Below are positions 45,075 to 60,151 of a stretch of DNA of 64,000 nt, piece by piece. The stretch covers positions 48,298,001 through 48,362,000 of the forward strand of contig OX597817.1 in assembly GCA_951406725.2 (NCBI GenBank). The letters run 5' to 3'. The translations under genes and the position numbers were made by a program. Origin of the DNA: Octopus vulgaris (lineage: Eukaryota). How positions within the stretch are numbered: position 1 is the stretch's first letter; each line of letters begins with the position of its first letter. The notes under the pieces are model-generated. The model was given only the letters and a program-made list of their open reading frames with translations, was not told where the DNA came from and did no database searches.

Positions 45075-48000
45075 TCAAAAATGTCCAGAGCCTGGAAAAG
45101 TAATGAATTGGCGTTGTTCCTGAGAGCCTGGTAATGCCGACGGAGATAATCCGAACAACATAATTACAGCTGCGCTAAAGAGCAGTGGATATAAAAGATA
45201 GAGCAAAAAAAGCAGGCGTTTATACGCTCCTATGCACTCATAAGATCTCACAGTGGCACGCTTGATGCCATCTTTGACAACGAACAAAGTAAAGATGGCA
45301 AGGATGGAGACACGGGTGCTGATGAAAGATGTCACCCCCACTTGGTAAGCACCCAGGTAGAAGATTTAAGTGAGAAACCTTCACGGGAATTAAACCCAAG
45401 TGTAAGTGCTCCTACCAGCACCAAAAGCCATGGAGATAAAAGAGCCAAAAAAGAAACAGCCAAAGAAGGAAAAACTAAAACTCAAACAAAACCAAAAGAT
45501 GAAACAGCCAAGGATAGAAGCAAACCTGACTATCCATGTACCAAAAAGGATAGAAACAGACAGCGCACACGAATATGTAAATTCTACATGAAAGGTGTCT
45601 GCTGGCATGGAGAGGAAGGTGCAGACTGCCGTTTTGTACATCAAAGACCCTGCCACATAAAGTCGAAACAGGTCAGAAACCAACTACCAAAAGGAAAAGG
45701 AATGGACCCCGCACCACCTGCCCAAAATGGAGGTACGCAGATGTGGTGCGTGCTAAAACCGCCAACATGTTATTGAAAGGGCAGCTGCTGAACAAGAATC
45801 TTTTTTGTGCATGGCACAAAAGATTGTACAGCAGCTAACCTGACTCCATCAAACTCAAACTCGCAGATGGGACTATCCACAATATACAAGACAGCCACAG
45901 CAAATAGACCCAAGGTGGACACCGCCGGCAACAGCATACACCTCACCTCGATGCTCCTACTGAACATCAGAGGACTGCAAACACTCAGTAACAGGACAAA
46001 AATCCCGTTCTTGACAGACTTTGTTGCATGCAATCAAGCCTTATGCATAGCACTTACGGAAACACACCTGAAACCGAACATAGCAGATGCGGAATTACAC
46101 ATACCACAGTATGTTGTACTACGGACCGACAGAAACGAAAGGAGTCATGGAGGAGTTGCTATGTACATCAGTGAGGATCTCACACCCCAGGGCCATTTGT
46201 CATACTCAAACTCGGTGTGTGACACACTAATTGTTCATATAAGGCAACTTGGTGTAGTTGTGTGTGCTACATATCGCCCTCCAGATGCCCCAAGCCATGT
46301 AGGCAAGTTTGAAGACTGCCTTATAAAAATAGAAGAAGTTCTAGTCACATTAGAACAACACATAAGTGTACTTCTTATGGGAGACTTCAATCTACCCAAT
46401 GTCAGATGGCCCGAGGGCCTTTCTCTCCCAGGAATGACATGATGTGAACGAGGACAGGCGAGGTCTCTCCTGAACCTCATCAACACCCTGTACATGGAGC
46501 AAGTAATACTCCAACCAGCCAGGGCAGGAAACATACTGGATCTCTGCTTCACAAATAATATGGATCTCATCCATAATGTGAAAGTGACACCGACACTACT
46601 CTCGGATCACAACATGGTAGAGCTGACCATGTACGGGCCAAAGGAAAGCATGGACATGCAGCCTACAAGAAACTCTCAGAATCTTTCCAGCTTGAACTTC
46701 CATTAGGCAAACTGGAAACAAATTGAGAAAGAGATCCTCAAACAAAACTGGCCTGAATGTCTCTCCTCACCAGACATCGATATGAAACTCCAACAATTCA
46801 TGTATTTAATGCAAGCCATATGCTACAAATGTGTCCCAGAGAGAGAGGCCACTGTACACAAGAACGAAATCCCCAGAGAGAGGAAAATTCTAATGAGATG
46901 GCGTACAAAAGTTTCAAATCGCCTAAACAAACAAATTGAAAGCAGTGAAAAGTCCCGCCTGAAAATAAAACTGTTGGAAATTGAAAATTGTCTGCAACTC
47001 TCCCATGAAAAGGAAAGAGCAGACAAAGAAGCCTGGGCTATAGACAACATAAAATCTAACCTCAGAGCTTTCTACAGGTATGCCAAAGAAACAGCTACGG
47101 TGCACTGTAGGATAGGGCCACTCCTTGAAAAGGATGGCACACTCACAGGAAATCCAATTAGGGTAAGTGAAATACTAAATGAGTAATTCAAGAGTGTTTT
47201 CACTCCACCCCTTGGGCATTTCCAAATCAGCAATCCAACTGACTTCTTTACCACTGCAGATATAGAATCAGAGGCAGCGATGATTGATTACATCAATATA
47301 AAGGAAGACGATGTAATAAAGGCTATAGATGAAATGAAAACAAACTCAGCTACTGGCCCCGATGGATTCCCGGCAATCCTCCTAAAAGTATGTAAGAGAG
47401 TCCTAGAAAGACCACTGCAGTTCCTCTTTCAGAGCTTACTTGCAGCTGGCAAACTTCCAAGAAAACTGAAGGAAGGTAAAATATGCCCTATTCATAAAGG
47501 AGGTAGCAGAGCGGAGGCCAAGAACTACAGACCTATCTCTCTCACCTCACACATCAGCAAGGTCATGGAACGAATAGTCAGAAGGAAACTAATCACCTTC
47601 CTTGAAGAAAATGACTTGCTGCCTGACACCCAACATGGTTTCCGACCAGGAAGAAGCTGCTTAACTCAGCTCCTACAACACTATGACTGGGTGCTGAAAC
47701 GACTGCTCAACCACTCAAATGTGGAAGTGATATATCTCGACTTTGCAAAGGCCTTTGATAAAGTCGATCATGGAATGATGTCACAAACTGCGTGATCTTG
47801 GCATAGTTGGAAAATTGGGAGGATGGCTTCATGACTTTCTGAAGGATAAAATTCAGGTGGTAGTAGCCATTGAGGCCACTTCCATTAACACGCAAATAGT
47901 GAGCGGTGTTCCACAGGGCACTGTTTTGGGACCACTACTGCTCATAATGGCCCTCTCAGACATGCCCCCAGCCTCGTAGAGAGCCACGATCAAAAGTTAT

Positions 48001-48985
48001 GCAGATGATACAAAAGTTTCACAGGCAATACAGAACCCTGAAGACATTAAGCACCTGCAATGTGAGCTGGACAAAATATACAAGTGGGCTGAAAAGAATA
48101 GCATGCAGTTCAATGCTGAAAAGTTTCAAACTTTATGCTATCAGCATGCAAGACTAAATGCAATACCCAATGAATACACTGGAGCTGGAGGGATTGCAAT
48201 CCCAGAGGCACAATCAGTGCGTGACCTGGGTATTTACATGAGTGATGACGCAACCTTTCATGTACATGTTGCTAAATTCGCAATGAAATGTAAACGGTTG
48301 GCCGGATGGATTCTTTGAACATTTAGAACAAGAGAACAAGAAACCACGATGGTCCTCTGGAGGACACTTGTCCTAAGCCACTTTGACTATTGCTCTCAGC
48401 TATGGTCACCATCCAGTGTCAAGTTGATCACAGAACTTGAGGCGATCCAATGAAGCTAAACGAAGAAGATAGCTTCTGTGCGGCATGTAAGCTACTGGGA
48501 AAGACTCAAGAGATTAAAACTCTATTCCTTGGAGCGTAGGCCAGTAAGATATGCCATAATATACATCTGGAAGATCCTGGAAGGACTTGTCCCAAACTTT
48601 GGCATCGAAAGTTACACAAATGCCAGAACTGGGCGCCACTGCGTGGTGCCAACGACTCCAAATTTGCCATCAAGATGTAGGACAAGATACTGTGATAGCC
48701 TGGGCTTCAGAGGCCCACAGCTCTTCAATATCCTCCCGAAGAACCTGAGGGACCTGCATGGGTTGGATGCGGATGTCTTTAAAGTAGTACTGGATCTCTT
48801 CCTGTCAGGTGTCTCGGATGAACCAACTTCTCGGCAGGAGGTGCAGATGAGGGCAGCTGCATCGAACTCTCTCTTGCACCAAATGGCAGTTGCTAAAAAG
48901 CATTCGTGAAGTAAAATCATGTAGCAAACCAAATGGCGGTGCCCCAGCATGGCCACAGCTCGTGAGCTGAAACTAGATAAAATAT
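45075..48985 (+). mobile_element. Near full-length family F2 LINE, disrupted by stops and frameshifts
   Basis: Basic ORF1 with a CCCH finger (CKFYMKGVCWHGEEGADCRFVH), APE endonuclease (LNIRGL, LTETHL, YRPP, GDFNLP, LSDH), RT and F2 tail. The 5' boundary is approximate. Confidence 0.9.
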
Positions 48986-49417: not shown

Positions 49418-49440
49418 ACTAGCATTAAAGACCCGTCGTT

Positions 49441-49598
49441 GCTGGGTCATAGTGCTAGTGCACGTATATATGTGTATATATATGTGTACATCTATATATA
49501 TACATCTACACATAAAATGCTGGGTCATAGTGCTAGTGCACGTATATATGTGTATATATATGTGTACATCTATATATATACATCTACACATAAAATGC
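49441..49598. repeat. 78-bp tandem duplication inside the Helitron
   Basis: GCTGGGTCATAGTGCTAG... at 49441 and 49519. Confidence 0.95.
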
Positions 49599-49649
49599 AA
49601 AATACAAGGTTATATCTTGATATCGCTATTGATAACAATACTCAAAATA

Positions 49650-49665
49650 TATAACAGACTGGAAT
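49650..49665. repeat. 16-bp target-site duplication of Tx1 element A (second copy 54851-54866)
   Basis: TATAACAGACTGGAAT is exact at both ends. Confidence 0.85.
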
Positions 49666-49904
49666 TGTTTTATTATTACTCACAAGGGGCGAACATAGAG
49701 GGGACAATACAATCTGATGTGGGGACAGATATACGAATGGGTTTACAAAAAAGGCGAATTTAAAAATTTACAAAAATTACAAAAATAGAAAAAATCGAAT
49801 GGGGAACAGACCGGAAGACATTACGGATGGAGTGGGGGCGGGTTTAGCTCGGACCCCACGAGCCCCGCTCCCCACTGATACTTTGGTTTCGTCTAGTTTT
49901 ACAT

Positions 49905-52900
49905 TTATGTGGTATCATCCACTCGCAACTTTCGTGCTACATCTTTCCATCGTTCTTCATACACTCTCTTTGTCAGGCATTTTCTCTCCAGCCATATCTT
50001 CCTTTTCAGGTGAAAGATGAAGTAATTCATCAAACCAGGGCCGGAGATGAACTTGCCTGACCGTAAACTTTTCATTCTCGTCTTCCATATCACCTCTTTC
50101 GCAATTGCTACTACAACGAGAAAACAATTCTTACCTTCTTTCGCGAGGAAATCTGGTGGGTCAATTTTTGTAATAGACTCAGTCGACAGCTGTACTCTTC
50201 GTGTGCTTGACAACAGCTGTTCGGCATAAACCCACACCTCAGACACGACCGAACAATGAACAATAGCGTGCGGGACGGTTTCCCTATCCCGCTCGCATCT
50301 TGGACATATCGGACTGTCTTGGCCACCGTGCCTTGCGAGTTTATCCCGAACAGGTAGAGCTCCTCTGTAGCATTGCCATGCCAGAGACTTCTGGAAGTTG
50401 TCCAGTGTCTTCGGCTCGAACGTACGTCGGAACAGACTGGCCAGCTGATTATCGTCGAGACCTAGGGTTTCCCCCAAGGTATCTTCACATTCCGCCTCTA
50501 CCAACCCTCTATAGAAGAATGTGGTGGAACCCCCACCGCAGGCGTTGCCCGAGCGACGGGATAGCAGGAGAGCCTTGCGACACTCCGTGTACCATGTGCC
50601 CAGTTTCGATCTACGGTTCAGCCAGGTTTCCCATCCACCGAAACTAGTGAACTTGGGAAACATCAGTTTTGCTAGCGGAGACCACACCCGTTCACCATCC
50701 AGGTAGAGCCACAGATGTCTTAACCTCAGCGCATGTCTGCGCATCATCAGCCAAGGCATCCCTAGCCCACCCTTTAACGATTGTTGACAGCAAGTAGAGC
50801 GTTTCACAAGTGGTTTCCCGCCCTTCCACAAGAAGTAGAAGAGCTGTCTTTCCAACTTGATCAACCACGAATCAGGGCAAGGAACGACGGAAAGGCGGTA
50901 GGTGATAACCGATGCGATAAACACATTGGCTACCTCCGCCCTCCCTTTCAGGGATAGCCACCGCCAAGACCAGGTCTTGGTTACTGCAGCCACCCTGCTC
51001 GATACCTCGCCCCAATTCTTCTCTATTTGGAGGTCAGGACCGAACCAAACCCCTAGCAACTTAATCGGACCCTCCGTCCAACGTCCTACGACGCTGTCAG
51101 GAGGCATCGACTTGCCTCTCCAGGTGCCGAGTTGCAAGCCGACTGACTTTTCACGATTAACTTTTGCTCCTGTCACCGTCTCGTAAACCTGTATGGCCTT
51201 GCCTACTTTACGTAGGTGATCCATTTCGGTTACGATGATGGTGATGTCATCCGCGTACGCTGACACCGATTTTCCACTACCTGGCTGTCTCGGGATGCCG
51301 CTCAGTTTTCGCAGTAATGGCTCAAGAGTCATCACGTACAAAAGCGGGGAGAGCGGACACCCTTGACGAACCGAGCGCTTGATGTTGAACGGCTTCGACA
51401 AGAAGCCGTTCACCCGAACTACCGAGTCGATGTTGTCGTAAATTTGGATAATCCACCTGAGGAAGCCAAGGCCCAGCCCGAACTGTGCCAGGGCAGATAC
51501 CAGGTAGCGATGGTCGACCCTATCGAATGCTTTAGATTGGTCTAAATGGACCAGTGCCCCACCCTTGCCAGAATCACTATTAAACCCCTCTATAGTGTAC
51601 CGCATAAGATGGAGATTATCCTGAATGGTTCTGCCGGGAACGGCACATGTCTGCCTCCCCGATCAAACCATCCGCGACACGCGCCAATCTTTTCGATAAC
51701 ACTCTGGCCAAAATCTTCAACTCTGTGTTTAGCAGAGTGATGGGCCTGAAATTATCAATGCACTCCTCCTTGCTCGGGTCCTTTCTGACGAGTGTCACTA
51801 CTCCCCGGCGCACAGATCTGGGTATGAACCCGTTCTGCTTCCAGTTCGCATAGACCTCCGCCAGTAGGTGCCCGAACAAGTCTGGCATACTCTTATATAA
51901 CTTATAGGGTAGACCATCTAAACCCGGCGCCTTGCCCGCGCCGCAGTCCGCCATCGCCTCAACCACCTCCCCAGGCGTGATTGGCCCTTCACAGCCCTCC
52001 GCATCTCGCCCCGATAAGCGCGGCAGCCCGTCGAGGAGGTCCGTAAAGGCCCTCCTCCTATTCAGTCCGCCGCACTCACCGAAAAGCTGAGCGAAGTGCT
52101 CCTGAAAGGCCTCATACATCTCTTCGGGCTCGTTTATCAACTCACCTTGTTGGTTCGTCATAGATCGAATCGTGGCGTCGTTACCACGCTGAGCTTCCAC
52201 CACTCGGGCCCATCTCACGGCGTTGATTCCTTCACAACCCATTGCGCGGATCCTAACCCTGACAATGCAGCCCATGTGTTTGGCCTCGAGGTGCTGGTTT
52301 AACGCAAGTCTCTTGGCCGCCACCTGAACCGCAGAGCCAGATTTCAAGGCTTCCTCTAATTCCCTAACTAGAGTAGATTCCCTCCTAGCCTCTCTAGCCA
52401 CTAATCCTATGCTATATCTAATAGACTCGAATTTGATGGCTCGCTTGAGGGCATACCACCATTTGTTATTAATGATGGCACCAGATAGTGCCCTCTGAAT
52501 TATAGTCCTAATCCGGTCTCTGTACTCCTTAATCGCCAAAAGGGACGTATTAAGTTTCCAGTAACCGGAGCCTCTATTTTTAACCTTATCTATGTCAAGC
52601 TTACAGGTGACCATTTTATGATCACTGTAGCTGACCAGGTAAAACTGTGGACACTTAGCTATTTTTCTGTCTACTTTTCTAATTAGTATCCTATCTATGT
52701 ATGACCTGGAAGATCCGTCGCTGTTTGACCATGTCCACAATGGAGCGTTCGGAAATTCCAACCTATAAGGATCTGCTAGCTCAAAGCGGCTTAGCAGTTC
52801 CAGGAAGCCAATGTTACCTTTTCTATCTGGACGCAAGCCAACACAATCTACATCCGTTTTGCAAATTGTGTTAAAGTCTCCTAGCATAACTAATGAATGC

Positions 52901-53298
52901 GAAGTACCAAGAAAGTTTTCCAGTTCTCGAAAATAATCACTTTGCCCTTTTTGGTTAGGTGCGTAAATTGCATCCAGTCTGATAACTTTACCGTTACTGA
53001 ACGTCAAATCCATGACGACCAGCCTACCTTCTGGGTCTGAAAAAATTAACTTTTTCTCAAAAACCCGGTTTCTTTTTAATAGGACCAACACCCCACCCCC
53101 GCCTGTAGGACTGGCCGGAGAGAAAAAACTCTCGTAGCCGTCAAACAGCGGGAGTAGACCTTTTGGCCCCTCTAACCGGGTTTCTGTAGCAACAATAACA
53201 TCCAAATTACGCGACCTGATATCATTAAGGAAGCGACCTTGCTTCCAGCTTGATCCCAGGCCGCGCACATTTAAACAACCAACAAAAATGCAATCCAT
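49905..53298 (-). CDS. Tx1 ORF2 (APE endonuclease, RT, C-terminal zinc finger) with one frameshift at ~51650
   Basis: CLNVRGL, TET, GDFN, YIDR, SDH; KAPGLDGLP, FRPITLLN, KAFDRV, RQGCPLSP, YADD; CPRC...HAIVHC. Confidence 0.92.
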
Positions 53299-53306
53299 GA
53301 CTTACC

Positions 53307-54580
53307 TTATATCAGTGGTTCGACTTGTTCGACTTGTTTTTCTTCTTCTTCACTTTTATTTTTTTCCTGGGCTCGTGGGGGAGTCCGACGCAGGCCCTCG
53401 TATAAATATGGAGATATATCCAATCTCAGAGGGCCCACGTCGTGAAAGAATTCGGATTTTATCCGTCCGTAATCCTTCCCGCCTATTCTATAAACAATAC
53501 AGTCTTTTGTTTTTTTAATTTTCTCCACCTTGGCCATGGCTGCCAAAACGTTAATTAGCCTGTTGTTGGCAGCCTTAATGGCCATAAATGTATTCGTCGC
53601 TTCTTTCCTCTTTTTTTGGCTCTCTTTCTGAGGGGTGGTTTCTGTTTTCCGTTTTTTTTTTTGGTAATTTTTGACCACCCCTCCTCTTTTTCCTTTTCTT
53701 CGCCGCTTGTTGTTTCTGTTGCTTCTTTGGTTTCTGTAGTTTCTGGTGTTTTCTCTTCTGTTTTCTCTTTTCTTGTTTTTTCTTTTTCTGGCGGTGCTGC
53801 TTCCTGCGGTCTAGGTTGGCACTCCGCTCTCACGTGCCCCTTTTTACCGCAGCCGAAGCACCTCGGCTTTCTGCCCTCCACAAACACTATCACCCTCTCC
53901 TCCTCGCTGATCCTTAATGTCTCTGGAATTTCTTCCAATGTTTGTACTTCCGTTTGTATCACTATTGAAATGCATTGGCCTTGCCAATGCTCCTCCTCCT
54001 CTACTGTAGCCTGGAGGATATTGATTTTTTTCCTCCAGGCCTAACATGACTGCCGCCACCAGGCATGTGGCATCTGCCTCTGGGGGAATGTTTCTTATTT
54101 TGATTTTTGAGGTCCTTCTGCCTCTGTACAGGGGGAGGAGGACTATATTATCGGCTTTTAGTGGTTCAGTTGATAGCTTTTTAGCTATCTCTTCTGACCT
54201 GAACCTCACCTCTACCGTTCCAAATCTTCTTCCACGATTTATATAAGTTATTTCCTGCCATATTGTCTTTAGGCAACACTCGATTTTCTTTTCTTCCACT
54301 CTTTGAATGGACTTCGTTGTTGAGTTGTACGTTTTATAAATAATCCTTTTTTTTTCCACCTCTTCCATCTTACTGACGTCCGGCGTTACTGATACTTCTG
54401 TACCTTCCTTTTTAGACATGCTGTGTATTTTTCCAGGCTGCTTCTTTCTGTTTTAATTGTCTTCAGCTTCTTGCCCGCAACTTCAGAAAACTTCTTAGCT
54501 GGGGCTTCTTCTGCTTTCGGCGACACCGCCGGTGAGCTTTCTTCACCTGACACAGGTGAATAGGAGATGGGGGTATCCAT
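53307..54580 (-). pseudogene. Tx1 ORF1 (gag-like, single CCHC knuckle), frameshifted
   Basis: FGTVEVRF, IRNIPPE, VEGRKPRCFGCGKKGHVRAEC, spread over several frames. Confidence 0.85.
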
Positions 54581-54866
54581 CTCGAAAATGGCTTAATAAG
54601 CATTTCAATTGGCTTTCACAAGCCTTCAAAAAATTCAGGCTTCGCAAGCCTTTTGTGTAGATTTTTAAATGTGTTCCACACAAAATGTTCCACAATAATT
54701 CCCCTGCAGGGGGGAATTAAATACGTAGCCTTCGCGCGAAGGCTAATGACAGTCTTATACAAAAGACACAATATATCAATCAAAGTAACAGTAATTAAAT
54801 TAACAAACCGGTATTAACAAAGTAGCAGCAAATGACAAAACAGACTGGCGTATAACAGACTGGAAT

Positions 54867-56639
54867 GATTTTATTACTACCCACAAGGGCGAACATAGAG
54901 GGGACAATACAATCGGGGAACTTAAAATAAGAAAGCGAATGACAAGAAAAGGAAAAAATAAAAGTAATAATGGCATATGAAAGAATATTTACAATGAGAT
55001 GTAAATGTCCACTCGATCCCCGGAATCAAGAGGTTACATTTTCGTCAGTTTTATCACATATATTTCACCAAATTTTTTCTTTTTTTTTTTCCTCTCACAA
55101 TTTTACATATATTCTATGATTTTTTCTACTCCTCTGAAGTCCATCACTGAATCCTCAGGCAGCCGCTCTCTTACTCGAACCTTCGTGTAAAATATTACAT
55201 TTTCCCCAGCAGCTCTGAGGAACTCAGCGGCACTTTCTTCGGGGATTAGAGCAGTCTCCTGCCACCGGTCGGTCATCCTGTTGACCCATATATGTCCCTC
55301 CGTTTTACTTGTCAAGTCATTCATTACAGGGCAGAAATGGTAGGTTACTAACTTGTAGTAATAGTAATCTTGTTTCCACCCTGCGTTTTCCTTCATCTTC
55401 CTTTTCGGGCTTATTTCTTCCTTGTTCTCCTCTCTTTGTTTCTCTCTTTCTCTCTTTTTGCCTTCTTTTCTTTCTCCTTCCTTCTCTTGTCTTTTTGGCT
55501 CTTTGTCTGTTTTCTCTTTCTCTCGTGCTTTATGTTCCTTTCCTGTATTTTCTTTTTCCTTTTGTATGCCGTCTTTTCTTTTCGTTTGATTCTGATCTCT
55601 CTCTTGTTTTTTTCCTATTGTTTCTTTTTCCTTTTTTTTTTCCTGACTCTGTTTTGGTTCTATTTCTTTTTTTCTATTATTTCTTTCTCCTTCATTGACT
55701 TATTATTTCCTTTCTCTTGTTGTTTTGTTTCCTTTTCTATGCTTTCTTTCTCATTTATAGTATTCTTCTTTTCTTCAAGTTCCTGCTCGCACACCGCTAC
55801 AAATTCATATAACGGGCACTCTTTTTTAATGTACCCCCTTGTCCCACACAAGTAACAGTTTGGTTTTCTCCCCTCTACAATTACGCTGAGGGTTTTTTCC
55901 TCTTCAATTTCAATTCTGTAGGGAAACCTTTCAATATCCTCTTTTGTGACCATAAGCCACAATTCTAACCCATATCCTCTCCAGTTTACCGCGTTGGACT
56001 CCTTAATTGATTCCACCTCCACTTCCTCTTCTGCTGCTCCTAGAATAGCTGTTGCCAGCCATTCTATTTTCACTTCTGGGGGTATATTCGGGATTTTAAC
56101 CCGGACCCCTCTTCTTCCCTTATATGAGGACCACATTGTGAATTTTTCGGCTCTTAGTACGGTGGTAGCCAGTGAGGCCGCAATTTCCTCCGTTGCACAT
56201 CTCACCTCCACCGTACCAAACTCACGTAGGTTATTTTCCCCATTATGTCTCCCAGACATTTCTCAATTTCGTCTATCTCTACTCTTGCCAGTTTCTTCGT
56301 ATTCTTGTCTTGGGTTCTATATGTCACCGTCTTGCTTTCTTTATCCTCTTTTGCTTTCGCGGGGGGGATTAGCTTCACGCTATCACCCTCCCTTTTGAAA
56401 AGCTTTTCATATTCTTTGAGTTTCTCCTTCTCAAAGAACACCTCCCTTACAATTATCGACGAATCGTTATTTTTTCCGGTTCCCCCGCGTAAGTCGCCAT
56501 GACTAGAGGGTCAATACACCTTCTTCGGAAGGTTTCCACACGTGGAGGCAAACGCCTCGCGCGATATCAAATCAATTTACACAGAAAAAATTCACCGTCT
56601 GGTCACAACTAACAACACACACTCGATTAAGACTGCAAT
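54867..56639 (-). mobile_element. ORF1-only non-autonomous Tx1-type element B
   Basis: ORF1 (ATG 56500 to ~55103, frameshifted) with VEGRKPNCYLCGTRGYIKKEC. No EN or RT. 3' end shared with A. Confidence 0.85.
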
Positions 56640-58589
56640 GATTTTATTACTACCCACAAGGGGCGAACATAGAGGGGACAGTACAATCGGAGAAAAAAAA
56701 AATAATGAAATATGAAATATGTATAAATGTGGTGTAATGCCCCAACCAATCCCCGAAATCAGGTGGTTACATTTCGTCGTTTTTAATTACATTTTATAAT
56801 GTTTTCAAAAGTAACAAATTCATTTTTCAGCATTTCGCAATACATTTCAATACATTTCAAAGTATAATTTCAAAATACATTATCAATTACAAAAAATTGT
56901 TTTCACAAATTCACATATAAAGCTTTCGCAATACATCTTTAAGATTTCAAAATACATTTGAAATAAACAAAAGTCTTTCCAAATTCTCTTTTTCTTTTTT
57001 TTTTTCTTATAATTTTAAATTAGTTCCATTACCTTTTTTAGGTCATTGTAATTTTCCATCTCACGTGGGTACCTTAGCAGTCGGCACTTCGTGTGTCTTG
57101 TTACGTTCATACCAGCGGCCTCGATAAACGCATCGGCGTTGTCTTCATGGACCAGTGCACCCGTTTCCTTCCACTCCGTGCCCATCCTGACCCATGAATA
57201 ACCCTCCGTTTCACTAATTAATTCCTCCATCTCCCCACAGTGTCTATATTGTACCAATGTTCCGTAAAATTTGTATCTTTTATTTGACCCTATGTTTTCT
57301 TTAGTTTTCCTCTTCGGACTTACTTCTTCTTTACCTTCCTCTCTCGGTTTTTCTCTTTCTCTCTTTTTGCTTTCCTTTTCTTTTTCCTTCTCTTGTCTTT
57401 TTGGTTCTTTGCCTGTCGTATGTTCTTTTCCTGTTTTTTCTTTTTCTTTTTGTGTAGCAGCCTTTCCTTTCTCTTGATTCTGTTCCTTCTCTTGTTTTTT
57501 TTTCTGTTTTTTCTCATTCCTTTATTTTACTTACTTTTTCTTTCTCTATTACCTGTGACTTTTGTTCTTTTTCTATTAATTTCTTCCCTTTGCTTTCATT
57601 TTCCTTCTGTGTATTGTTATTTCCTTTTACCGTTGTTTCCTTTTCCTTGCTTTCTTTCTCCTTTAGAGTATTGTTCCCTTCTTCGGTTTCTTTTTCTTTC
57701 TCTTTTTTGTTTTCCTCTGCTTTTTCACACTCCGCCACGAATTCGTATAGCGGACATTCTTTTTGAATGTGAGCTCTTGTCCCACATAAATGACAGTTGG
57801 GTTTCCTCCCCTCAACGATTACGGAGAGGGTTCTACCATCTTCTACTTCTATTTGGAAGGGAATTCTATCTATATCGCTGTTTGTGGTCGTCAGCCACAT
57901 CTCTACTCCGAATCCCTTCCATTTCATTGTGCTAGTCTCCTTTATCGATCCAATTTCTATATCTTCCTCAGCTGATCCTAGGATGGCTGTTACCAGCCAT
58001 TCTGGTTTTAAATCTGGGGGTATATTTGGGATTTTAACCCGTACCCCTCTTTTCCCTTGTAGGTAGGCTACATGACGAAGTTTTCGGTTCTGAGTACGGT
58101 GGTAGCTAGCGAGGCCGCAACTTCTTTTGTTGCGTACCTCACCTCCACCGTACCATATTTCTTGCCTCTGCACACAAAGGTAGCCTTTTTCATAACGTCG
58201 TCCAGACATTTTTCTATGTCTTCTATTGCTATTCTTGATAGCTTTCGTGTGGTCGTGTCCTGTGTCCTATAAATTATAGTTTTGTCCTCTTTTTCCTCCT
58301 TTGCTTCAGCAGGGGGGGGGGGACCAGCTTCACTCTGTCACCCTCCCTTTCAATGAATTTCTCAAATTCCTCTAGCTGTTCTTTTTTAAAGAACACCTCT
58401 CTTACTGTCAGCGGCGTATCGCTTTTCATTGCGGCGACCCCCGCGTAAGTCTCCATGACTTGAGGGTCGGCGCACTTTCTACAAAAAGTTTCTAACGCGC
58501 AGCGGCAAATGCCTCGCGCGATTCAAATTTTTTTCAATTTCTATATACAAAATTAACAATTACTTAACACACGCGATTAAAACTGCGAT
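56640..58589 (-). mobile_element. ORF1-only non-autonomous Tx1-type element C
   Basis: ORF1 (ATG 58456 to ~57015, frameshifted) with VEGRKPNCHLCGTRAHIQKEC. No EN or RT. 3' end shared with A. Confidence 0.85.
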
Positions 58590-58939
58590 TGTCAGCTCTT
58601 CTTTTTTCTCTACATTGTATGCTTTATAGACAATAGTCTTTTCTTTAATTTAATTTTTGATTATCCATCTGGACTATTCCATTTCTGCACGCTAATTATA
58701 TTTTTAATTTCTTCCCATTCATGTGAAACCACTTATTCAAGTTCAAATCATTGATGCAATTTTATACCAATTGCTATTTTTACTTTTGTATGTTACGATT
58801 ATAATATACTTTAGTTTGATTTAAATTATTTCCTACTACATATAATTAAATTGTTATTATTATTTTTATTGTTAAAGTGAAAGCATCTGACATAAAATAG
58901 AGAAATATTTTTGTTTCACTTTTAACACGTAATACTGAA

Positions 58940-59228
58940 ATAGTGGAAAAGATATAATATTGCTATAGGCTCGCTCTAGACAAGAATTTGAACTTTTTTC
59001 TTGCCCATGAAACTACATGGACCCTAAGTAAGGCATGTGTAATATTTGAATGAAATTGGTTGTCTAGTTCTCAAGTTTTAGGGAATCGTAGTGGAGAAGA
59101 TATGATATTGCTGTGGGCTCGCCCGAGGCAAAAAATAAAAAAATTGCCGATGACACTCCCCGGACCCTAAGTAAGGCATGTGTAAAATTTGAATGAAATT
59201 GGTTGTGTAGTTCTCAAGTTTTAGGGAA
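58940..59228. repeat. ~145-bp imperfect tandem duplication near the Helitron 5' end
   Basis: GGACCCTAAGTAAGGCATGTGTAA at 59019 and 59162. Confidence 0.9.
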
Positions 59229-59287
59229 ACACACAGACACACATTCTCAATTTTATATATATAAAGATATATATATATACTTATATT

Positions 59288-59600
59288 ATCATCATGATCA
59301 TCATCATCATCATTTAACGTCCGTTGTCCATACTGGCATAGGTTGGACGGTTTGACTGGGCTGGCATGCTAAAAGGCTGTGCCAGGCTCCAGTTTAATTT
59401 AGCTTGGTTTACTTCAGTTGAATTCCCTTCCTAATGCCAACCACTCTAAGAGCGTAATGAGTGCCTTTATGTGCCACCGGCTGTTTGCCATTTGCATGAC
59501 AATGACATCAGCCACAACTGCAATTTTGCTCAGTTTCATGGGTCTCTTCTCAAGCATGACATAAGGCCAAAGGTCTTGGTCATTGCCTCCGTGAGGCCCA
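59288..59600 (-). mobile_element. RTE LINE 3' fragment
   Basis: (CAT)n followed by TTTAACGTCCG...GGTTGGACGG, as at 13815. Confidence 0.8.
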
Positions 59601-60119
59601 ACACTCGAAAGGAACTCGGCTACTTTGCCTCCATGAGGCCCAACACTCGAAATTAACTAAGCTACCTCGCCTCTGTGAGGCTCAACACTCAAAAGGAACT
59701 CGGCTACTTTGCCTCCGTGAGGCCCAACACTCGAAAGGAACTCGGCCACTTTGCCTCCATGAGGCCAAATGCTCGAAATGAACTCAGCCACTTTGCCTCC
59801 ATGAGGCCCAACACTCGAAAGGAACTAAGCTACCTCGCCTCTGTGAGGCCCAACACTTGAAAGGAACTCAGCTACTTTGCCTCCATGAGGCCCAACACTC
59901 GAAAGGAACTAAGCCACCTCGCCTCTGTGAGGCCCAACACTCGAAAGGAACTTGGCTACTTTGCCTCCATGAGGCCCAACACTCAAAAGGAACTCGGCCA
60001 CTTTGCCTCCATGAGGCCCAACACTCGAAATGAACTAATCCACCTCGCCTCTGTGAGGCCCAACACTTGAAAGGAACCACCTTGCCTCCATCAGGCTCAA
60101 TGCTAAAATGGAACTCAGC

Positions 60120-60120
<1 letters not shown>
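59583..60120. repeat. 42-bp minisatellite, ~12 units
   Basis: Unit TTGCCTCCRTGAGGCCCAACACTCGAAAGGAACTCRGCYACT. Confidence 0.95.

Positions 60121-60151
<31 letters not shown>

Follow-up and report, generated by a model that had tools for sequence, protein, structure and literature searches.

The 64,000-nucleotide stretch of the Octopus vulgaris genome analysed here (contig OX597817.1, positions 48,298,001 to 48,362,000; "the window") carries three retroelements, A, B and C, that are stacked inside one non-autonomous Helitron. The best explanation, to which we give a probability of about 0.72, is that A, a family of long interspersed nuclear elements (LINEs), and partners that code only for the first open reading frame (ORF1; B, C and at least one more family) insert at a bipartite target within this Helitron. 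The evidence set out below shows the Helitron host and its empty alleles, the repeated and independent insertion, its dependence on context, the polarity of the arrays, selection on the ORF1 of B, and short target prefixes linked to element lineage.

We observed that A, B and C are joined head-to-tail on the minus strand, in the order C, B, A, with neither a spacer nor poly(A) between them. The 3' end of A reads AATAAAACA (at 49666), and the 3' ends of B and C read AATAAAATC (at 54867 and 56640). The motif ATT[CG]CAGTCT has three matches in the window, all on the minus strand and each immediately 3' of an element end. An exact 16-bp duplication, ATTCCAGTCTGTTATA, lies on both sides of A (54866-54851 and 49665-49650), and the 5' reads are CGCCAGTCTG for A, ATTGCAGTCT for B and ATCGCAGTTT for C. 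The sequence-only reading of this DNA had described the head-to-tail order, the motif after each 3' end, the duplication and the three 5' reads, and the junctions agreed with it on each of these points. Its view of A as autonomous and of B and C as ORF1-only was supported by the domain content and the missing ORF2 (see below), but the A copy in the window is itself frame-broken, ORF2 being interrupted once near residue 550 and ORF1 at several points. The host had been overlooked: both flanks of the array are arms of one Helitron. The features are as follows (slashes mark the Helitron ends).

58590 to 59267, minus strand: 5' arm of the Helitron, short variant; starts at A/TC (59267) and terminates in ...AAGA-GCTGACA, a captured piece of a related ORF1.
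58580 to 58589, minus strand: drifted, arm-proximal copy of the target duplication (ATCGCAGTTT).
56640 to 58579, minus strand: element C, ORF1-only and non-autonomous, with relatives in arrays at other loci; ORF1 at about 58456-57015, broken here; the youngest in the window, judged by position.
56630 to 56639, minus strand: drifted copy of the target duplication (ATTGCAGTCT); an identical junction precedes B at C4:93.97 Mb.
54867 to 56629, minus strand: element B, ORF1-only and non-autonomous; ORF1 at about 56500-55103, broken here; intact relatives have 467 amino acids and a CCHC knuckle.
54851 to 54866, minus strand: upstream copy of the 16-bp target-site duplication, an exact match to the downstream copy.
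49666 to 54850, minus strand: element A, a LINE of the L1/Tx1 group with two ORFs; ORF1 at about 54580-53307, ORF2 at 53298-49905 (APE-RT-zf).
49666 to 49715, minus strand: 3' tail of about 50 nt common to A, B and C (92-95% identity), ending in AATAAA plus 3 nt, with no poly(A).
49419 to 49665, minus strand: 3' arm of the Helitron, with the downstream target copy (49665-49650), a subterminal hairpin and the CTAG/T end at 49419.

The host was recognized from a search of the 2.8 Gb genome. The 3' end of A was found at 29 other loci, and at many of them hundreds of bases of downstream flank were in common; this flank ends in a hairpin and CTAG/T, and the upstream flank starts at A/TC. The array sits in a non-autonomous Helitron spanning 59267-49419 of the window. 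The host has a 5' TC, a 3' CTRR and insertion between A and T without duplication, as expected of a Helitron, and its GC-rich subterminal hairpin is stable (last 42 nt, z=-4.87; 0/200 shuffles). Empty copies are about 710-880 bp long with A/TC..CTAG/T ends; 12 of 15 empty loci had both ends, mostly in this form with single-base variants. Two variants of the Helitron exist. The short variant has 124 exact empty copies of the target found in the window (site 1), which is the empty allele that had been predicted, and 15/15 loci checked were indeed empty there. The long variant has about 300 extra bases with a captured ORF1-like piece (ORF1 likeness E 2.5e-6), and 367 empty copies of a second target (site 2, TTTGAAC^ACATGG). 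The captured ORF1 piece (L169 and other long-variant Helitrons; 58650-58590 in the window) is related to the elements described here, and both target sites are located within it or at its edge.

The ORF2 of A contains APE endonuclease, reverse transcriptase (RT) and zf-RVT domains, and an open ORF2 frame of 1131-1132 amino acids was present in 8 of the 36 ORF2 starts examined. In B and C no ORF2 match was obtained at E<=1, and only ORF1 was found. The closest solved relative of the A ORF2 is human L1 ORF2 (E 1e-64; R2, E 2e-26). A has the L1/Tx1-group layout, with ORF1 followed by an ORF2 with an N-terminal APE endonuclease, RT and a C-terminal zinc domain, and its named RT matches are an octopod protein (63%), turtle proteins (37-42%) and a coral protein labelled Transposon TX1 (37%). 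A CCHC zinc knuckle in ORF1 is a feature of the Tx1 clade; zf-CCHC was detected in the B ORF1 (E 9e-5), and in one A ORF1 only at E 0.07, below the cut-off. A is consistent with the Tx1 clade, an assignment made from domain order, the CCHC ORF1 and database labels rather than from a reference tree. A comparison with a protein atlas gave matches only to generic APE-RT clusters.

B and C are 70% identical to each other, and either overlaps with A only in the last 50 nt or so of the 3' end. Since the B ORF1 is only 34% identical to that of A, B is an old sister lineage with a common 50-nt tail, and not a recent deletion of A. The ORF1 of B is under purifying selection (dN/dS, the ratio of nonsynonymous to synonymous substitution rates, of 0.19-0.23 in four pairs of B copies). 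From the common 3' tail, the common sites and a dispersed B copy with a 17-bp duplication (L203), we infer that B and C are mobilized in trans by an A-type ORF2. No stable fold beyond that of shuffled sequences was seen in the common 3' tail (z 0.65 to -0.82). A further ORF1-only family, X, is 36% identical to the A ORF1 and has a variant of the 3' tail ending in AAAGAATC/AAAGAAATA; it enters the same arrays (L041, upstream of A at C31:1.35 Mb; L013; L030; C4:92.78 Mb). At L004 (C12:42.85 Mb) and L119, the last 340-360 bases of A are present as a tandem duplicate at the 3' end.

We found 358 element 3' ends by pattern. The first 100 listed were scored by eye, and 78 were Helitron or array junctions, 4 lay in a second host repeat and 18 in unrelated sequence. 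In Kojima 2015, target preference is taken as more than 20% of flanks falling in one multicopy sequence (PMC4494074); here the value is about 78 of the 100. Repeated site-specific insertion, as the sequence-only reading had proposed, was supported by these downstream flanks genome-wide and by the divergence of the elements in comparison with that of the Helitron arms. Divergence between elements was as little as a tenth of that between their host arms, at 0.4 and 4.0% respectively for L075/L084 and 1.5 and 7.1% for the window A and L003. Elements in different Helitrons differed by 0.4, 1.2, 1.4 and 1.7%, and their arms by 4.0, 4.5, 4.8 and 7.2%. The two divergences were hardly correlated (r=0.11 at site 1, -0.26 at site 2), and at site 2 the means were 3.5% for elements and 5.2% for arms (9 loci). 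In a tree of the 3' arms (15 filled and 26 usable of 30 empty loci), the filled arms were scattered among the empty ones; the mean divergence was 5.55% between filled arms, 5.99% between empty arms and 5.80% between the two, and the filled/empty label changed 14 times as against 12.5 in shuffled trees. A single site could also be abutted by different elements, full-length as well as truncated. Insertion was therefore repeated, largely independent and later than the spread of the Helitron.

The alternative is that one or two chance insertions into the Helitron were multiplied by Helitron transposition, with arrays formed by unequal crossing-over. The array does lie wholly inside intact Helitron ends, one A 5' junction is common to four site-1 loci, and near-identical units occur in the array on C7, as do near-identical copies at L066 and L067. 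The divergence contrast, however, speaks against such an origin, as do 5'-truncated elements with a duplication of their own at the same site (L233; L075/L076) and array neighbours that are up to 7.5% apart and yet 0.2% from units on other chromosomes. We consider it very improbable; as the main cause it is largely refuted by the arm tree and the divergence contrast, and it would be a contributor at most.

The sequence-only reading had supposed that each insertion supplies a new target motif in the form of the element's own 5' end. This did not hold, as the sequence preceding the B family varied by array: ACGTGTCGGAAAT occurred eight times in one array, ACAGCGAGGAAAT five times in another, and in site-2 arrays the preceding sequence was ACGTGTC.. 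or ACAGCG... The target-like sequences before B and C are drifting copies of the local target duplication, and not element 5' ends. Such junction sequences drift (ACAGCG.., ACGTGT.., ATCGCA..) while remaining in use.

Neither was the motif sufficient as a target. The whole site-1 sequence is kept in the long variant, 300 bp downstream of the arm, in 484 exact and 24 variant copies (15 of the 24 were read out and the other 9 are plain indels), and 0/508 were filled. For the short variant, 31 matches comprised 22 filled junctions (14 supported by sequence that was read or by a 3' end close by, and 8 by junction sequence only), 3 empty variants and 6 unrelated sequences. With 127 empty copies, 22/149 short-variant sites were filled as against 0/508 (Fisher p=2e-15, or 3e-10 with only the 14); the filled share of about 15% is approximate, as the patterns for empty and filled sites differ slightly. 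Timing was ruled out as the cause of the 0/508, since the two variants are of equal age (arm divergence of 4.0% in the short and 4.1% in the long variant, from 15 short arms and the 24 usable ones of 30 long arms). The terminal AAGA of the 5' arm is followed at 7 nt by the site in use in either variant, and in the long variant this site is ACATGG. The target hence seems to be bipartite, consisting of the arm context and a short sequence, with the position apparently set by the upstream arm and not by the motif alone.

The suggestion that the target is an initiator (TCAGT) motif found no support either, as TCAGT is absent from site 2 (ACATGG), which is the commoner one, and from both sites of the second host. 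The 5' end of A starts in a CAGTCTG copy, and so it does at one dispersed insertion (L194), so that transcription may start inside the duplication. The second host repeat (L121, L124, L129, L130, L199, L206, L207, L211) has two sites about 25 bp apart, ATCGATACTC.. and AACTGAATACTC.., preceded at 9-18 nt by an A-tract, and an octamer-like ATTTGCAT motif upstream. The sequence after these sites looks like a mariner fragment. At L014, an older ORF1-type element in the opposite orientation lies about 450-1250 bp past the A 3' end, and the sequence that precedes it is similar to the upstream portion of the second host repeat.

Head-to-tail stacking was general. Ten and a further two arrays were inspected, and they were mixtures of A-type, B, C-type and another ORF1-only family; one had 10 units and another at least 20 (both of its ends lie outside the fetched stretch). 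The B units were often nearer to units on other chromosomes than to their neighbours (0.2 vs 1.6%; 0.2 vs 7.5%). Plain tandem duplication as the main cause was ruled out by this unit divergence at C1:64, C1:118, C3:85 and C1:115 Mb, a rejection that does not extend to the near-identical block on C7. The distance of B units to an outgroup (the site-1 B clade) increased toward the 5' end in six arrays (net 128/201 pairs; 40/48 pairs without the longest array), with p=0.0002, which is the floor of 5000 permutations and is optimistic given that units of an array are not independent. We read this as growth of the arrays at the arm-proximal junction, on the 5' side, which would record the order of insertion. 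The order previously proposed for the window (A, then B, then C) fits this 5'-ward growth.

It is also conceivable, though improbable, that several units were laid down at once, by a template jump of the RT or by re-priming at an unsealed nick. This would suit the blocks of near-identical neighbours and a two-unit array at a unique site (C3:117.26 Mb), but it offers no source for an age gradient common to arrays on different chromosomes. At this last locus (G000:C3:117253000-117265500; L151, L152), two different A elements are stacked at a non-Helitron site, and the downstream one has, at its start, a fragment of Helitron arm and a site-2 junction. The C7 array (G000:C7:100091500-100126200; L213-L216) consists of at least 20 ORF1-only B units, 0-2% apart, over about 35 kb or more; it may be a satellite in the making or, in part, an artefact of assembly.

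Returning to insertion at a bipartite target, A and the partners with the common 50-nt tail would insert by target-primed reverse transcription inside the non-autonomous Helitron. The first part of the target would be a determinant in the Helitron 5' arm upstream of -7, which might be a DNA motif (A-tract/AAGA) recognized by ORF2 or else a host factor that binds there. The second would be 2-5 lineage-specific nucleotides directly after a nick that follows a pyrimidine. Each insertion would duplicate about 10-20 bp and so rebuild the junction of arm and target upstream of the new element. Only this rebuilt junction would be reused, and the 5'-side growth that records insertion order would follow from it; the polarity would arise because the element's own 3' end lacks the AAGA-arm context. 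The chemistry, the nature of the upstream determinant and a transcription start in or upstream of the duplication are the parts of this scheme that we infer.

Several observations weigh against this reading. The arm tree is star-like with only two starred branches, and on its own it does not formally reject a single origin of the filled arms; because the tree is weakly supported, we base the argument for independence on the contrast between element and arm divergence. At site 1 the case is weaker on average, because the element mean (3.9%) is not below the arm mean (3.6%; 11 loci, short 3' arm). L066 and L067 are near-identical, and some copies may have moved with the Helitron or through duplication. 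The upstream determinant is a postulated part of the target, and a fixed position is not distinguishable here from a longer sequence motif, because the difference between the short and long variants falls exactly at -8. In the C7 array, many 5' units are 0.0-0.1% apart, which unequal crossing-over or assembly error may fit as well as insertion does. Finally, the two-unit array at C3:117.26 Mb has a local 16-bp duplication at all three junctions; because it lies outside any Helitron, stacking can occur without the arm, perhaps by double insertion.

We also evaluated how each lineage finds its target. A tree of the A 3' region (48 rows) was split with support of 100/99 into site-1 and site-2 groups, with a site-3 subclade. 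The one clear exception was L138, which has a site-2-clade 3' end at a site-1-type junction. The duplications at dispersed copies measured about 13-22 bp, and in 21/21 credible cases the base before them was C or T; this set left out 11/25 rows and 14/20 loci with no credible duplication at a dispersed site. The prefix ATT was seen in 10/12 site-1-lineage and 0/8 site-2-lineage dispersed copies (p=7e-4), and the prefix AC in 0/12 and 8/8, respectively (p=8e-6); lineage was assigned by hand from markers in the 3' untranslated region, with marker-less short inserts and two other lineages left out. L030 is 22 bp from a site-2-like junction, and L068 lies within a local duplication. Each lineage thus retains a target prefix of its own, 2-5 nt long, at dispersed sites as well. 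At L073, L097, L114, L115, L127, L133, L134, L137 and L210 the insertion is extremely short, amounting to about 22-28 nt of the 3' tail between clean duplications of 13-21 bp; such copies are useful for nick mapping.

These prefixes could be passed on by RNA. A transcript carrying 10-20 nt of the donor's downstream flank, as would be expected because AATAAA lies 3 nt before the element end, would anneal to the nicked DNA and hand the target to the daughters, and the endonuclease would need only the pyrimidine step; an arm determinant is compatible with this. We regard this explanation as possible rather than probable. The dispersed prefixes agree with it, as does the finding that site-1 B copies form their own clade (100/100) although B has no endonuclease. 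At L008 the downstream copy has the base A of its lineage where the upstream copy has G. Pieces of earlier targets and of the Helitron arm are present in the 5' leaders, so that flanking sequence evidently becomes part of the RNA on the 5' side. In R2Ol, annealing of read-through RNA raises insertion (PMC6530143). On the other hand, if annealing were the whole mechanism, the 508 long-variant site-1 copies should be in use and the arrays should lack polarity, and both predictions fail. Only one RNA-templated mismatch was seen, L064 and L194 have no simple fit, and the prefixes are explained equally well by endonuclease loop differences between the target lineages.

It may instead be that the APE endonuclease of each lineage reads a long sequence over the nick (about -18 to +6), and that substitutions moved the target among at least four sites; this too we regard as possible rather than probable. 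The split of the A tree by site is in keeping with it, and Kojima names the endonuclease as the main determinant of target choice (PMC4494074). Substitutions specific to a lineage are concentrated after the NVRGL, YAPN and GDFN motifs, in segments that align with surface segments of the L1 endonuclease, and dN/dS between most target lineages is 0.28-0.45 in the endonuclease vs 0.12-0.2 in the RT. An endonuclease that evolves faster than the RT is common, however, and positive selection on the endonuclease was ruled out by a dN/dS below 1 in all pairs. Dispersed pre-insertion sites have little in common with the arm beyond the pyrimidine at -1, strongly drifted junctions are still reused, and L138 combines a 3'-end clade and a junction type that do not match. 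A further proposal, which we put forward as a rather unlikely one, is that the insertion site is inherited epigenetically via RNA, with the donor's downstream flank, carried on the transcript, picking among nicks that are permitted by an anchor located upstream within the host element.

In other parts of the window, a degraded and unrelated APE-RT LINE lies at 45867-48500 on the plus strand, and pieces of it recur as inverted repeats at 26533, 36944 and 41722. A minisatellite with a unit of about 40-44 bp (about 59560-60130) lies just upstream of the Helitron, and TA microsatellites swamp the repeat-finder output for the whole window.

The targeting of DNA transposons by Tx1 elements and tandem stacking are already known. 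Kojima 2015 describes Tx1L in Tx1D of Xenopus, and in crocodilians Tx1-Mar and SINEU-3 in Mariner-N4_AMi and Tx1-9_AMi in Harbinger, with transcription from the host flank suggested (PMC4494074). As in those systems, one site in a non-autonomous DNA transposon is preferred both by a Tx1-type LINE and by its non-autonomous partner, tandem insertions follow one another around the target duplication, and hitch-hiking had to be excluded (PMC4494074). Unlike in those systems, the octopus host is a Helitron (and a second repeat), the partners code for ORF1 and are not short interspersed nuclear elements, arrays reach 20 or more units with an age polarity, an identical motif is idle out of context, and a single family, with less than about 12% between its lineages, has at least four targets.

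HeT-A/TART/TAHRE elements are of another clade; they have poly(A) and extend chromosome ends, and their arrays mix gag-only and autonomous members. The octopus arrays are similar to them in being head-to-tail in the same direction and in growing on the 5' side (PMC5537684), but are interstitial, flanked by target duplications and without poly(A) junctions. R2 has a restriction-like endonuclease and a fixed rDNA target. A candidate likeness to it is that a read-through RNA flank could anneal to the target and aid priming (R2 data in PMC6530143). Like HAL1 (half-L1), B and C are ORF1-only LINE derivatives; HAL1 is known from mammalian L1 (PMC5753468), whereas the B ORF1 has only 34% identity to that of A. 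TRE5 and TRE3 of Dictyostelium likewise insert at a set distance from a host feature (PMC5006619), with a tRNA gene as the anchor instead of a Helitron arm plus a short lineage-specific sequence. The octopus repeat annotation counts recent L1-Tx1 and Helitron families, and its available text makes no mention of L1-Tx1 nested in Helitrons (PMC13282606). No report of Tx1 in a Helitron, of a bipartite positional target or of polarized ORF1-only arrays was found in the literature searched, which did not extend to Repbase and subscription journals. The distinctive features are thus the Helitron host, the context-dependent bipartite target with its natural negative control, the long polarized ORF1-only arrays, and target switching within one young family.

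How APE-type LINEs gain or change target specificity is an open question that is usually approached across distant families. Here, a single young family, several of whose lineages retain intact ORF2 copies, makes use of two host repeats and of at least four targets in them, and the genome holds a natural control, the same motif being filled in one Helitron variant and never in the other. Because of this target diversity and natural control, the shares of the endonuclease, the RNA flank and the upstream anchor are directly testable, which bears on the building of site-specific insertion tools. If inheritance through RNA is true, a target could switch in one step without a change of protein, and the arrays would be ordered, dated records of active LINE lineages, growing at one end as in a CRISPR array or a HeT-A telomere, but within a mobile element. 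The polarized arrays provide a dated record of the element lineages and document a LINE that uses the copies of another transposon as renewable safe sites.

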